In this document: positions 26,745 to 62,001 of the stretch, piece after piece
Layout: the number at the start of each line of letters is the position of its first letter
Position numbering within the stretch: position 1 is the first letter of the stretch
NCBI GenBank assembly: GCA_964419615.1
Contig: CAYQPU010000001.1
Location: forward strand, 17,266 to 81,265
Source of the DNA: an uncultured Methanosarcinales archaeon
GTDB lineage: Archaea; Nanobdellota; Nanobdellia; Woesearchaeales; JAGVZT01
DNA length: 64,000 nucleotides
Reading direction: 5' to 3'
Position numbers and translations under genes: made by a program
Notes under the pieces: model-generated
What the model was told of the DNA's origin: nothing
The model's input: only the letters and a program-made list of their open reading frames with translations
Databases searched by the model: none

Positions 26745-27406
26745 AATCTTTTGATCTTGATATTGGTGAGCCGTATTTAGTGCAGATTGCAAAAGATCAC
26801 AAGTGGGAAAACACTTGGGATATTGATTTGAGTTCTGATTTGCCAAACGCAGATAAGTTTATTGAGTACACAAAAGGTAGTTATGACAATGTTGCGATTG
26901 AAATTCTGTTTAAAAACAGTGAAGGTATGAAGAACATACTTGGGTTTGTTTTTAGTGACAAACTCAAAATCAAAACTGAAGCAGAGTTTTTAGAAATAAT
27001 AACAAGGATTGCTAGCAACAAATCTGGTTTTGAAGACCTGGTAGGTGAGCTCAACAAAACATTATTGCATAAAGATGAGTTCTTGTTTAAAGGAATGCCT
27101 GACATGATCAGAGTTGGTGTTGTTAATCATTGGTTTTCTGTTGGTCCTTGTCTGATTTGGGAAAAAGACTCCTCAACTGTAATACCAAAAGAAGAACTGC
27201 TTGACAAATTACAGCAGAATCAGGGTTTGTTTAAATCAAGGCTAAACTATCAAGGAATTAGTTTCATATTTAATAGAAATGAGTTTGATTTTTATTATTG
27301 GATCAAACCTTCTTGTTTTAAAAAAAAAGGTGAATATTTTGTTGTTGATATTAATAAAATAATCAAACTAATGCAAAATATGTTTAGGTTTGAGTTCAGT
27401 TCCTAG
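26741..27406 (+). CDS. Hypothetical protein
   Basis: 221-aa ORF, ATGA-coupled to the upstream gene. Confidence 0.65.
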   Translation: MKSFDLDIGEPYLVQIAKDHKWENTWDIDLSSDLPNADKFIEYTKGSYDNVAIEILFKNSEGMKNILGFVFSDKLKIKTEAEFLEIITRIASNKSGFEDLVGELNKTLLHKDEFLFKGMPDMIRVGVVNHWFSVGPCLIWEKDSSTVIPKEELLDKLQQNQGLFKSRLNYQGISFIFNRNEFDFYYWIKPSCFKKKGEYFVVDINKIIKLMQNMFRFEFSS

Positions 27407-57954: not shown

Positions 57955-58356
57955 TTGATTATGATGCAAGAATTCACTTTTCAAACCTCAAAAAAATATG
58001 AAATAGTTGATGTAACTTCAATAGTGCAGAATATTGTCAATGAGTCAGAAGTTAAAGAAGGTATTTGTGTCGTTTATGTACCGCATGCTACAGCAGCTGT
58101 GATTATTAATGAAAATTATGATCCTAATATTTGTGATGATTTGCTTGATTCTTTAAGGGATAATATTCCCGAGGGTAAATGGCGGCATGATAATATTGAT
58201 GGGAATGCTGCTGCTCATATTAAGGCAGCTATTGTTGGGCCAAGTGAGACTTTGATTATTAAAGATGGAAAATTGGTTTTAGGAACATGGCAGAGCTTGA
58301 TGGTTGCTGATTTTGATGGTCCTAAGCAGAGGAGAGTTGTTGTTAAGATTGTTTAA
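57955..58356 (+). CDS. yjbQ: UPF0047 / YjbQ family protein
   Basis: VPHATAAVIINEN, HDNIDGNAAAHIK, LGTWQ, FDGP motifs. Confidence 0.92.
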   Translation: MIMMQEFTFQTSKKYEIVDVTSIVQNIVNESEVKEGICVVYVPHATAAVIINENYDPNICDDLLDSLRDNIPEGKWRHDNIDGNAAAHIKAAIVGPSETLIIKDGKLVLGTWQSLMVADFDGPKQRRVVVKIV

Positions 58357-59830
58357 GGCTAAAAGTATCTAGTCCAAGGCCAGAGAGATTCTGTCCATTT
58401 TGTTGTTCTTGCTCCTTTTTAAGTTCCAGAGCCTTTACATAAGCTGGATCTCTGTTTAGAAAATGATATTCGTAATTTATTGGATCCTGCAAATAACATT
58501 CGTGGAGTTCTTTTAACCTAACCGCAATATCTTTACTTACAATAGTTTGAACAGAAGGATGGGCTACGAAGTCATCAACACTGTCAACACAATCAATAAG
58601 GTAAGTGAAAATAAGATCTCTAAATAATTTGTACTGCTCCAAAGGGAAGTTAAGATTACCCCTATTTTTTGAATAGATATTATCGTTCATTAAGGGAGAT
58701 TCTGCCAGAGTTAGATACAAAGGTACATAATCCGGATTTTGCTTTTTAACATCCATTCTTGCTTGATATACTAATTCGTCTGTCTGACTCTTTTCTAGAG
58801 TAAAAGTTGAAAGATTTACGTCCATAAAAAAACCACATAGAGTCCAAATAAAATCAAAAACATCTAATCTTGGATCTTGTTTGGTTCCATGTTTCTCAAC
58901 AAGCTTTGCTGCCCTTCTAACAAACTCCCATTCAACTACAACTGACGGATTTTTCAATCCAAGTTTTTTAACAAAGTCTGGGTCAAATTCATCTAGATTG
59001 TATTCAAATGTGTATTCAATAACAGATTTATGAGCATAGGCATGTGCAGGTGTTGTAGGGAATAACTCGGATATAACTAACTCTTTGCTTGTGGTTTTGT
59101 CTATTAGACCAGTACCTTCATTTATCATGAAAGATCTTCCGACATCACATGTTGCATATAGGACAAAATCAGCAAGTAGTTCAGGTGGTTTTTCTGATTC
59201 TTCATTGTCTGGACGTAATTCTGATAGTTCAAAAGAGAGGTCATAATCACAAATTTCAAATCTTCTTAAGATTGCTTCAAATTCCCGTACTCTCGATTGA
59301 AATACATTTAATACAAATTCAGTATGTAATTCATCATAGAATCTTACAAATTTCCCAATTGAATCTATCCTCCTTAATCCTGCTCTTGAGTATTCGTCAT
59401 GATTGGATTTTTTACTGTAATGCAATGTATCTTCATTAAATCTAAAAAACTGACCTTGATTTAATAACAGAGCTGAGAATATTTCTTTTTGTCGAGCATT
59501 CGCCAAGACAAGTTCTGCTCTTAAATCAAATTCAACAAAAGAATCATTTGCATCCAAGGGTCCATGGTATTCAAAATGATTAGGATCACCATATATCCCT
59601 TCAAACACTACTCTTACTTCTAGACCATCAAAAGTTTCAAAATGTCCTTTAACACTAAGAGTATCATCTTGTTCTTTTACACTTTCAATTAAAAAAGGCC
59701 TATAACCTTGTCTATTTACAAAGGCATTTATTCTTAGTGTGAGTTCATCATCATATGTAGGAAATGAAAAGGAAGTACCTAAATCAAAAAATTTGTCAAT
59801 GCCATTAAATAGATTAAATATCTCTTCCAT
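58343..59830 (-). CDS. Hypothetical protein
   Basis: 495-aa ORF, no recognised motif. Confidence 0.7.
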   Translation of the reverse strand: MEEIFNLFNGIDKFFDLGTSFSFPTYDDELTLRINAFVNRQGYRPFLIESVKEQDDTLSVKGHFETFDGLEVRVVFEGIYGDPNHFEYHGPLDANDSFVEFDLRAELVLANARQKEIFSALLLNQGQFFRFNEDTLHYSKKSNHDEYSRAGLRRIDSIGKFVRFYDELHTEFVLNVFQSRVREFEAILRRFEICDYDLSFELSELRPDNEESEKPPELLADFVLYATCDVGRSFMINEGTGLIDKTTSKELVISELFPTTPAHAYAHKSVIEYTFEYNLDEFDPDFVKKLGLKNPSVVVEWEFVRRAAKLVEKHGTKQDPRLDVFDFIWTLCGFFMDVNLSTFTLEKSQTDELVYQARMDVKKQNPDYVPLYLTLAESPLMNDNIYSKNRGNLNFPLEQYKLFRDLIFTYLIDCVDSVDDFVAHPSVQTIVSKDIAVRLKELHECYLQDPINYEYHFLNRDPAYVKALELKKEQEQQNGQNLSGLGLDTFSLKQS

Positions 59831-59952
59831 AGTATATCAAAAGGGAATATTTTACTAGATAAAAAGATTATTGAAATTTCAATCAAAAAGTGGTTGTCTG
59901 TTCATAATTTACCCAAAATATTTATATAATCCCTTTATTTTCTTGTTATAAA

Positions 59953-60012
59953 ATGGTTGCAAAGAATATACTTGGATTTGAAGTTTTAACTACTACAACC
60001 ACTACAGCGTAA
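59953..60012 (+). promoter_or_regulatory. Thr-rich leader peptide ORF of thrS (MVAKNILGFEVLTTTTTTA)
   Basis: ACT ACT ACA ACC ACT ACA; TTTATATA box at 59921-59928 implies a leaderless start; stop lies in the loop of ACAGC-GTAA-GCTGT followed by a T-rich tract. Confidence 0.8.
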
Positions 60013-60096
60013 GCTGTTCATTGTTTCTTTTAAATTTAGATGTTTTTAAAAAGATATAAATAAAAGATTTCAAACTAAGGAGGATAAGGAGCAAAA

Positions 60097-62001
60097 ATGA
60101 AAATCAAAATAGAATTTCCAGATGGATCAAAAAAAGAATATGAAAAAGGCATTTCTGGCCTAGATATTGCTAAATCAATAGGGGAAAGGCTTGCAAGAGC
60201 AGCTCTAGCTATTGAGGTAGATGGAGAAATAAAAGATTTAGATGTAAATATCAAAAATGATTCAAAGATAAGAATTATTACATTTGCCGACAAAGAAGGA
60301 AAAGATATATTCTGGCATAGTGCTTCTCATCTTATGACTCAAGCTGTTTTGAGAGTTTTTAAGGGTCAAAATATTGGTCTTGGCGTTGGTATGCCTGTTG
60401 AAAATGGATTTTATCAAGATTATGGTATAAAAGAATTACATCCAGAAGATCTAAAGAAGATAGAAAAAGAGATGCAAAAGATTGTAGCTGAGAAATTGGA
60501 AATTACTCAAAAAGATATTTCAAAAAAAGATGCACTCAAGTTTTACAAAAAAGATCCTTATAAGATAGAACTAACAAAAGCTGTTCCGGGTAATAAAGTA
60601 AGTATGTATTGTCAGGGTGAGTTTGACAATTTATGCAAAGGACCACATGTTCCAAATACTTCTTATCTTAAGGCATTTAAGTTAATGAAGATTGCTGGAG
60701 CTTATTGGAGGGGTAATTCTAAAAACAAGATGCTCACAAGAATTTATGGTGTTGCTTTTCCAGATAAAAAGCAGTTAAAGGGTTATCTTAGATTACTTGA
60801 AGAAGCTGAAAAGAGAGATCATAGAAAGCTTGGTAAGAAACTTGAATTGTTTAGCATCCATGATGAGGGACCGGGATTTCCATTCTTTTTACCTAAAGGA
60901 GTTGTGCTATGGAACCAATTAATTAGTTTTTGGAGGAAGCTGCATGATGAAGCTGGGTATGTTGAGGTAATGACTCCTGTTATTTTGCATAGATCTTTGT
61001 GGGAACAATCTGGTCATTGGACAAATTATAAAGAGAATATGTACACTTTAAAGATCGAGGATCAGGATTATGCAATTAAACCAATGAATTGTCCTGGAGG
61101 GATGCTTATCTACAATGAGAAGATTCATTCGTACAAAGAACTTCCATTAAGAGTTGGTGAATTGGGACATGTTCACAGGCACGAGATGAGTGGTGTACTG
61201 GCAGGTTTATTTAGAGTTAGGGCTTTTACCCAAGATGATGCACATATTTATATGACTCCAGATCAAATTAAGGATGAGATAATTAAAGTTATTGATCTGT
61301 CTGAAAAGTTTTACAAAATATTTGGTTTTGAGTACGAGATTGAACTTAGCACAAGACCTGAAAAATCTATTGGAACTGCTAAACAATGGGAATTTACAAC
61401 AGCTCAGCTTAAAAAAGCTCTTGATGAAAAAGGCATAGACTATAGGATCAATGAAGGAGATGGTGCTTTTTATGGACCAAAGATTGATTTTCATCTCAAA
61501 GATGCTATTGGTAGAACCTGGCAGTGTGGTACAATCCAATTAGATATGAGTCTTCCTGAGAGGTTTGATTTAACTTATGTTGGTGAAGATGGAAATAATA
61601 CACATAGGCCTTTCATGATTCACAGAACAATTTATGGCAGCATTGAGAGGTTTATGGGGATATTAATTGAGCATTACGCAGGAAAATTCCCATTATGGCT
61701 AAATCCTGAGCAAGTTAGGGTGATTGTGGTATCTGATAAGTTTAAACCTTATGCAAAAAAAGTGCTGCAGCAATTTAGAAATACAGGAATCAGAGCACAA
61801 GGAGATTTTCGAGCAGAATCTATTTCAAAGAAGATAAGGGAAGCTCAATTGGATTATGTTAATTACATGATTGTTATTGGAGAAAAAGAAGTAGAAAAGA
61901 AGACAATTAATGTAAGAACCCGGGATAACAAAGTTCTAGGTGAACTTGATCCAAATAAGTTTGCTAAAGATTTGCTAAAAGAGATTAAAGATGGAAAATA
62001 A
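60097..62001 (+). CDS. thrS: Threonyl-tRNA synthetase, bacterial type with TGS and editing domains
   Basis: WHSASH, LCKGPH, RDHRKLG, KPMNCPG, FRVRAFTQDDAH, GAFYGPKID, IHRTIYGSIERF. Confidence 0.97.
   Translation: MKIKIEFPDGSKKEYEKGISGLDIAKSIGERLARAALAIEVDGEIKDLDVNIKNDSKIRIITFADKEGKDIFWHSASHLMTQAVLRVFKGQNIGLGVGMPVENGFYQDYGIKELHPEDLKKIEKEMQKIVAEKLEITQKDISKKDALKFYKKDPYKIELTKAVPGNKVSMYCQGEFDNLCKGPHVPNTSYLKAFKLMKIAGAYWRGNSKNKMLTRIYGVAFPDKKQLKGYLRLLEEAEKRDHRKLGKKLELFSIHDEGPGFPFFLPKGVVLWNQLISFWRKLHDEAGYVEVMTPVILHRSLWEQSGHWTNYKENMYTLKIEDQDYAIKPMNCPGGMLIYNEKIHSYKELPLRVGELGHVHRHEMSGVLAGLFRVRAFTQDDAHIYMTPDQIKDEIIKVIDLSEKFYKIFGFEYEIELSTRPEKSIGTAKQWEFTTAQLKKALDEKGIDYRINEGDGAFYGPKIDFHLKDAIGRTWQCGTIQLDMSLPERFDLTYVGEDGNNTHRPFMIHRTIYGSIERFMGILIEHYAGKFPLWLNPEQVRVIVVSDKFKPYAKKVLQQFRNTGIRAQGDFRAESISKKIREAQLDYVNYMIVIGEKEVEKKTINVRTRDNKVLGELDPNKFAKDLLKEIKDGK

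Follow-up and report, generated by a model that had tools for sequence, protein, structure and literature searches.

Textbooks describe the sensing of amino acids by leader peptides as a mechanism of bacteria, and in Escherichia coli the tnaC leader senses free tryptophan through its nascent peptide and blocks Rho. In thrL (RF00506) and pheM-pheST, a short open reading frame (ORF) with cognate codons stands before a co-oriented gene, and attenuators are also found before bacterial synthetase genes, among them trpS and leuS of Streptomyces (PMC1262725). The T-box (RF00230) of bacterial thrS genes, presumed to provide more thrS product at low charging of tRNA-Thr, binds uncharged tRNA directly and does not need translation. 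In mycobacteria, leaderless short ORFs with polycysteine tracts exert translational control, the codon tract pairing with the Shine-Dalgarno (SD) sequence of the next gene (Canestrari et al., bioRxiv 10.1101/834739). A paper describing a tool states in general terms that upstream ORFs act in archaea as well (PMC10219788); in the literature searched, no description of an archaeal amino-acid leader peptide was found.

The leader described here lies in the window, by which we mean the whole stretch of 64,000 nucleotides that was analysed, and belongs to a genome of 1.48 Mb (64 contigs, 33% G+C) with archaeal SSU and LSU rRNA, whose closest matches among public thrS loci carry the label Woesearchaeota or Nanoarchaeota. 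The gene downstream of the leader (60097–62001, plus strand) is thrS, as the first-pass annotation of this DNA had said: its product of 634 aa, the sole threonyl-tRNA synthetase (ThrRS) match of the genome, has the Pfam domains TGS, tRNA_SAD, tRNA-synt_2b and HGTP_anticodon and matches the NCBIfam thrS equivalog. The enzyme, a ThrRS of bacterial type made up of TGS, SAD, core and anticodon-binding domains, is ~55% identical to Firmicutes enzymes; a T-box directly precedes thrS in five of ten loci of its closest bacterial homologues, as against none of ten archaeal loci. A search of Rfam for the thrS leader gave no match in the window, in the leader region at E-values up to 10, or in the ten archaeal loci. 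The genome, rated 99% complete, yields just five tRNA genes with ARAGORN, or ten with introns allowed; long introns are present in several of its tRNA genes, the tRNA between the SSU and LSU rRNA genes measures 126 nt, and the SSU rRNA gene is 1640 nt long against a 1478-position model.

The leader ORF (59953–60012, plus strand) has 19 sense codons and a TAA stop codon (60010–60012), is co-oriented with thrS and lies 84 nt before it. Its presumed sensing codons form the run ACT ACT ACA ACC ACT ACA (59989–60006, plus strand), in which three different Thr codons are used and which is followed by GCG TAA. The leader promoter (P1) has a TATA box, TTTATATA (59921–59928, plus strand), with 24 nt between the end of the box and the ATG. 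In genes of this genome that have no SD, the end of a TTTAWATA box is found 21–26 nt (peak 22) before the ATG, and since the spacing at the leader falls within this calibration, the ORF is predicted to begin at the transcription start, that is, to be leaderless. The first-pass annotation had claimed such a start for the 19-aa upstream ORF, which as a prediction agrees both with the calibration and with the same spacing in orthologues; every sequence detail given there, from the TATA box, the ATG at 59953 and the six Thr codons to the hairpin whose loop contains the stop codon, and the coordinates, proved correct. Divergent from the leader promoter, on the minus strand, is an ORF of 495 aa (58343–59830) with no Pfam match.

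The logic proposed for the Thr leader is like that of thrL and pheM, and the thrL likeness suggested by the first-pass annotation holds at this level; at the level of the RNA it does not, in that the Thr_leader family (RF00506) gave no match to the thrS leader at the gathering threshold or at E-values up to 10. Unlike these bacterial systems, the Thr leader has an archaeal host, a TATA promoter with no sigma factor, a predicted leaderless start with no SD, an invariant TCATTGT box common to leaders for different amino acids, and a candidate second promoter between leader and gene; thrL is built from four segments pairing as 1:2, 2:3 and 3:4, whereas the Thr leader has one short hairpin with the stop codon in its loop. 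With the T-box of bacterial thrS it shares its place and its presumed purpose, although no T-box was found in the window or in the ten archaeal loci. As in tnaC-tnaA, the putative regulatory site directly follows the leader stop codon and could be reached by a ribosome at or near the stop; in contrast to nascent-peptide sensing by tnaC, the codon run is the obvious sensor here. The mycobacterial polycysteine ORFs are alike in their leaderless start, in consecutive cognate codons at the 3′ end and in the presence of genes for the same amino acid downstream, and differ in their bacterial host and in pairing between leader and SD, for which we see no counterpart; in the Thr leader, a terminator-like module follows the stop codon. 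On the evidence set out below, the thrS leader very probably serves to gauge charged tRNA by way of the ribosome that reads it.

Conservation of the leader before thrS

Just one of the 2515 intergenic ATG-initiated ORFs of 8–45 codons in the host genome, where Thr accounts for 5.4% of codons, has a run of at least four Thr codons, and this is the thrS leader with its run of six. As the only such ORF sits before the only thrS, a chance origin of the Thr leader is excluded. Runs of five occur in one Val ORF and one Ser ORF of the same set, before valS and serS. In a control set drawn from metagenomes, with some 65 upstream regions of mostly bacterial thrS genes, one ORF had at least three Thr residues among its last ten, and this single positive is a Woesearchaeota leader identical to that of locus L044; a metagenome scan with ThrRS returned mostly bacterial or leader-free loci and no additional leader of the two classes with a Thr run (A and B, below).

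Seven genomes of the same family have an intact upstream region, and in every one of them thrS has a Thr-rich leader ORF in front of it; one of the seven is the unpublished genome G006 (locus L009), on which no conclusion depends. The first-pass annotation had named the lack of such an ORF in orthologous loci as the finding that would speak against its reading, and had proposed an alignment of thrS upstream regions, in which we found conserved Thr runs with synonymous variation across genera. Among relatives at large, which are non-independent samples, a Thr leader was found before thrS in 11 of 29 loci, including those of other Woesearchaeales, and it is present in several more public assemblies. 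A TATA box lies 22–25 nt before the leader ATG in 14 of 19 orthologous leaders, in some of which the start codon was itself picked by TATA spacing; the other five have an incomplete upstream region or no TATA box by the pattern used. The orthologous ORFs are open from the ATG to a stop codon just past the Thr run, and their codon differences are mainly in the third position. Between two species of the host genus, the N-terminal half has six amino-acid replacements and the Thr run just two synonymous changes, a pattern that points to a translated ORF with selection on its Thr codons.

In the thrS leaders of the host family (class A), the Thr run is followed by an Ala codon, the stop codon and then GC, CATTGT and a T tract. 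Class B leaders have a Thr run, a Cys codon and the stop, with a GC-rich hairpin across the stop (e.g. CCTGC/GCAGG). Those of class C have two Thr codons only, and their peptide end, FLLTTR, is kept through many synonymous changes; there are hints that the nascent peptide of this class may itself take part, in the manner of an arrest peptide. Leaders of the FLLTTR type were seen at loci L036, L039, L042, L049, L015 and L003, the last with one Thr codon and the end LLSTGL.

Leaders for other amino acids in the same genome

In at least eight loci of the host genome, the amino acid of a predicted leader is matched to the gene downstream. The eight leaders were located by scanning the genome for the TCATTGT box and for amino-acid runs, and the downstream genes were named by NCBIfam. 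Besides the six Thr codons before thrS, there are five Val codons in a leader of nine before valS (contig C10, 39244–39218, minus strand; locus L112), seven Ser codons among 15 (AGC, TCA, AGT and TCT) before serS (contig C5, 20445–20492, plus strand; L113) and six Met codons among 19 before metG (contig C5, ~26815–26874, plus strand; L113), the downstream products being ValRS, SerRS and MetRS. Two leaders with three Arg codons each lie at loci L114 (contig C12, 9487–9933) and L115 (contig C44, ~4060–4521); at one of the two loci the leader is followed by a small ORF and argG, and at the other by a paralogous small ORF and an ORF of 266 aa. A leader of 15 codons, many of them for Asn, Asp and Thr, belongs to a gene for an archaeal-type PEP carboxylase (L114; contig C12, 16855–18438), and a 17-codon leader containing Lys (window, 42631–42567, minus strand) to an operon with lysW and a homocitrate synthase-like gene.

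The last of these also came up in a search with the 21-nt stretch 60004–60024 of the Thr leader, which found a second copy, identical at 19 of 21 positions, on the minus strand of the window (42587–42567); this copy includes TCATTGT and comes after the stop codon of the Lys leader, before the lysW operon. The 5′ region of the Lys leader, ACAATGAGAG, is complementary to CTCT-TCATTGT. At the eight loci, the genes that received no NCBIfam name are the small ORFs and the 266-aa gene behind the second Arg leader. The paralogous small ORFs encode 103 and 110 aa and have no Pfam or NCBIfam match; the protein may be an uncharacterised arginine-related factor. The leader of the PEP carboxylase gene suggests control of anaplerosis by amino acids of the aspartate family.

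Outside the host genus, Val leaders were seen in two genera and Met leaders in four. The Ser leader, which mixes AGY and TCN codons, was found in the host genome alone, where the SerRS is 42–50% identical to those of its own family and 63–75% identical to those of five other families. Because the enzyme is closer to the latter, serS has probably been replaced in this genome, and in view of the Ser leader being confined to it, the leader module seems to be readily acquired or rebuilt.

The presence of the same architecture, with other amino acids, before valS, metG, serS, argG and lysW bears directly on the view that the thrS leader is no gauge of Thr-tRNA at all, but an operator in the RNA to which ThrRS or tRNA would bind (as in E. 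coli thrS or the T-box), a gene for a small protein, or a chance ORF. There is a precedent in E. coli ThrRS, which autoregulates through a tRNA-like operator, and the box contains UGU, a Thr anticodon; a site specific for ThrRS, however, cannot explain a family whose members precede genes for other amino acids. The third-position variation and the conserved reading frame point the same way, Rfam gave no match, T-box included, and the chance expectation is negligible. Moreover, the fold of 59953–60125 puts no hairpin whose loop resembles an anticodon next to the SD, the sole pairing that touches the SD being a 16-bp helix not seen in relatives. We regard all these explanations as exceedingly improbable and consider it highly likely that the leader is a translated, cis-acting gauge of Thr-tRNA of some kind.

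The module after the stop codon

The eight leaders of the host genome have a module in common, in which the stop codon is followed after 4–8 nt by TCATTGT and a T-rich tract. In the Thr leader, the stop codon lies in the loop of the predicted hairpin ACAGC-GTAA-GCTGT (60004–60017, plus strand), the 5′ arm of which is made of the last Thr codon and the GC of the Ala codon; the TCATTGT box (60018–60024, plus strand) stands directly 3′ of the hairpin, and the T-rich tract TTTCTTTT (60024–60031, plus strand) is a candidate termination site. In a simple terminator scan of 59800–60200, the hairpin with its T-rich tail was the sole terminator-like site, with 0.1 expected from shuffled sequences. The stem is short, at 5 bp. 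Compared with shuffles, the hairpin segment of the Thr leader has a z-score of -2.8, and stop-spanning segments have a modest mean of -1.36 over 28 leaders; the whole Thr leader folds no better than shuffles (z -0.98 for 80 nt and z -0.49 for 173 nt, 59953–60125). In other leader classes there is an equivalent hairpin across the stop codon with differing stem sequences. In most leaders the regulatory codons lie within the 5′ arm of this hairpin, and a GC usually comes right after the stop, closing a mini-hairpin whose tetraloop contains the stop codon.

CATTGT is invariant in all 17 leader elements of the host family, which precede thrS, valS, metG, serS, the argG operon, the lysW operon and the PEP carboxylase gene and in which the surroundings vary; the full TCATTGT is present in 15 of them. 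In 16 of the 17 the motif lies 4–9 nt after the stop codon, and T-rich sequence follows. At least seven T in 8 nt occur within 35 nt of the stop in five of eight elements, compared with 8.1% of control small ORFs. The T before G in the box, together with a G nine bases upstream, resembles the consensus of the bacterial elemental pause.

Several other roles for the box were considered and set aside. TCATTGT is not a general terminator or intergenic motif, as it has 53 copies where permuted 7-mers have a median of 47, and its complement is absent from the 3′ end of 16S rRNA, with which it might have paired. It is not a coding feature, the frame relative to the stop codon varying among loci, nor part of the downstream promoter, the distance from box to TATA ranging over 9–28 nt while that from the stop is fixed at 4–9 nt; at one metG locus, where 203 nt separate leader and gene, the distance from box to TATA is far above 28 nt. 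An ORF re-initiated from the TTG in the box was rejected on inconsistent lengths and ends, and an antisense leaderless start at the complementary ATG on inconsistent TATA spacing. A fuzzy search for the box and T tract in the genomes of five relatives gave thousands of matches, which in three genomes were no more numerous than those of the control pattern and in the other two exceeded them at most 1.7-fold, and the 30 loci inspected had no leader.

A motif invariant in 17 elements before different genes amid variable surroundings, tied to the stop codon (4–9 nt in 16 of the 17) while its distance to the downstream promoter varies, and no general feature of intergenic DNA or gene ends, would suit a post-transcriptional mechanism as well, as would the weak hairpin, by itself a poor terminator. 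Hairpin and box would then form a site for a trans-acting factor, for example a nuclease or the archaeal termination factor aCPSF1/FttA, which would cut or dislodge the complex except where it is blocked by a ribosome stalled close to the stop; or such a ribosome might simply shield the mRNA from 5′-to-3′ decay, as in erm-type induced stability. We think this unlikely: the factor would be hypothetical, part of the box can be explained by RNA pairing (CAT with the 5′ AUG, P ~0.009; TTGT with ACAA of the Thr run), and leader classes of other families have a Thr leader without the box.

The pairings just mentioned involve the 5′ end of the leader RNA. In the Thr leader, the 5′-proximal TGGTTG (59954–59959, plus strand) is predicted to pair with CAACCA (59996–60001) inside the Thr run. 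A helix of this type is present in a same-genus relative and, with 9 bp and a z-score of -3.0, in a same-family relative, in which the single non-Thr codon within the run corresponds to an altered 5′-terminal base, giving a double change from G-C to A-U. The Thr run could thus pair either with the 5′ end (TGGTTG:CAACCA) or with the box (ACAA:TTGT), the comparison offering one compensatory change among few sequences; in class A, the 5′ end pairs with the Thr run or, in three other genera, with the region after the stop codon. The paired probability of nucleotides 1–6 is 0.77 in the Thr leader of the window against 0.56 in shuffles, and averages 0.57 over 28 leaders against 0.44 in shuffles (Wilcoxon P 0.008). 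Helices extending an AUG:CAU pairing are longer in cognate than in permuted pairs (permutation P ~0.009), and in the window's own leader this pairing is weak (4 bp); pairing of the box CAT with the 5′ AUG is only moderately supported. The base-paired 5′ ends suggest that the 5′ AUG would be closed once the leader is complete, and that only the first, co-transcriptional ribosome would read it.

Candidate downstream promoter and proposed mechanism

Between the leader and thrS lies a TATA-like box, TATAAATA (60055–60062, plus strand), a candidate thrS promoter (P2) 34 nt before the ATG with a predicted start near 60086. Three same-family relatives have such a box before thrS (at 34, 40 and 31 nt) and two have none. 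It is followed by two SD motifs, AAGGAGG and AAGGAG (60077–60091, plus strand), and an SD at -10 to -13 of thrS is kept in orthologues. At valS and metG, a consensus TATA box stands 22–26 nt before the ATG in seven of seven loci, with a conserved GGAGG in between at -13/-14; serS of the host genome likewise has a consensus TATA box at the leaderless distance and a GGAGG in between. Probably, then, thrS, valS and metG also have a promoter of their own downstream of the leader, in which case the leader would at most add to or modulate expression. That an SD is conserved within these leaderless-type promoters, at valS and metG, speaks for the use and translation of transcripts that start at the leader promoter and read through.

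For the first-pass annotation, a transcription start of thrS downstream of 60012 would have counted against its reading. The predicted TATA-like box may partly bring this about, although it does not remove the role of the leader. Sensing of Thr-tRNA by the upstream ORF in the manner of thrL is strongly backed by its conservation, by the fixed TATA spacing and by the seven other cognate leaders, whereas the picture of the leader as sole control of the gene is weakened by the gene's own promoter.

A further possibility is translational attenuation of the mycobacterial type, in which the codon run or its surroundings would pair with the ribosome-binding site of thrS and a stalled ribosome would free it. 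The ingredients are the same as in the mycobacterial polycysteine leaders (bioRxiv 10.1101/834739), and a 16-bp A/U-rich helix is possible between leader codons 7–12 and the bases just before the first SD. Sequestration of the SD by the leader is not supported by duplex energies, which over 24 leaders are no better than those of shuffles (mean z +0.13); the 16-bp helix is not seen in relatives, and the fold of the whole region is unremarkable (z -0.49). We judge this mechanism very unlikely.

The reading that we prefer, and that taken as a whole statement we think somewhat better than even, is ribosome-gated premature termination, in which a stall at the Thr codons would lead to read-through into thrS. 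The leader ORF would be the translated 5′ end of a leaderless transcript from the TATA box at 59921–59928, and the hairpin, TCATTGT box and T tract a terminator-like module ~65 nt before the ribosome-binding site of thrS. When charged tRNA-Thr is plentiful, the first ribosome would run through the leader, terminate and leave, and the hairpin would form, the rest of the Thr run being paired with the box (ACAA:TTGT) or with the 5′ end; the T tract would then bring RNA polymerase to a stop, and thrS would be expressed solely from the basal promoter with its box at 60055–60062. When charged tRNA-Thr is scarce, a ribosome stalled at the Thr codons would cover the 5′ arm, the terminator would not form, and the polymerase would read through, adding SD-led thrS mRNA. 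Translation of the leader, an end to transcription at the T tract, the direction from stall to read-through and the role of the box are what we infer from the sequences.

Some features sit awkwardly with this model. We know of no need of archaeal RNA polymerase for hairpins in termination. As a ribosome at the stop codon would cover the hairpin too, termination after a fast run would require the polymerase to pause at the T tract, and the inner hairpin would stay uncovered if the ribosome stalled as early as the first or second Thr codon. Nor is the invariant TCATTGT box explained by the termination model. The same geometry could be read as the same sensor wired the other way round or indirectly: when it is at the stop in the hairpin loop, a ribosome masks both arms, so that a close ribosome would keep the hairpin from forming and allow read-through, as at the E. 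coli pyrBI attenuator, whereas an early stall in the Thr run, which begins 21 nt before the stop, would let the inner hairpin form, so that the leader transcript would end before the thrS promoter is reached. What sets the output would in this case be interference of leader transcription with the promoter of the gene itself, and a conserved promoter does stand just past the T tract at valS and metG (seven of seven loci), with a TATA-like box at thrS. This wiring appears improbable to us, since the biosynthetic operons with the same module (argG and lysW) need induction by starvation and not repression, and read-through transcripts with a conserved SD would be translated.

A bolder reading, to which we give limited credence, is that the leaders make up a regulon of a Woesearchaeales family, with eight loci in the host genome, each leaderless and reading the amino acid of its own gene, in which TCATTGT would be a dedicated ribosome-gated signal, either for programmed pausing or termination of the polymerase or as a site for a factor such as aCPSF1/FttA. 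Each synthetase gene might then have two mRNA forms, a basal one from its own promoter (leaderless at valS and metG) and an induced, SD-led read-through form. If true, this would be the first ribosome-mediated attenuation in Archaea, with a sequence signal of its own. Ribosome-gated control of this kind would, if real, imply that transcription and translation are coupled tightly enough for regulation in these archaea, provide a defined sequence (stop-loop hairpin, TCATTGT and T tract) for the study of archaeal termination or pausing, and explain how very small, host-dependent archaea fit the expression of synthetases and amino-acid pathways to supply without dedicated regulators.

With eight parallel loci that have different codons and one common module, the hypothesis is directly testable by codon swaps. 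The metG leader of a same-genus relative (L279) is a natural variant in which box and stop codon are separated: its stop codon is replaced by TAT, and the ORF reads through an intact TCATTGT to a TAA four codons on.
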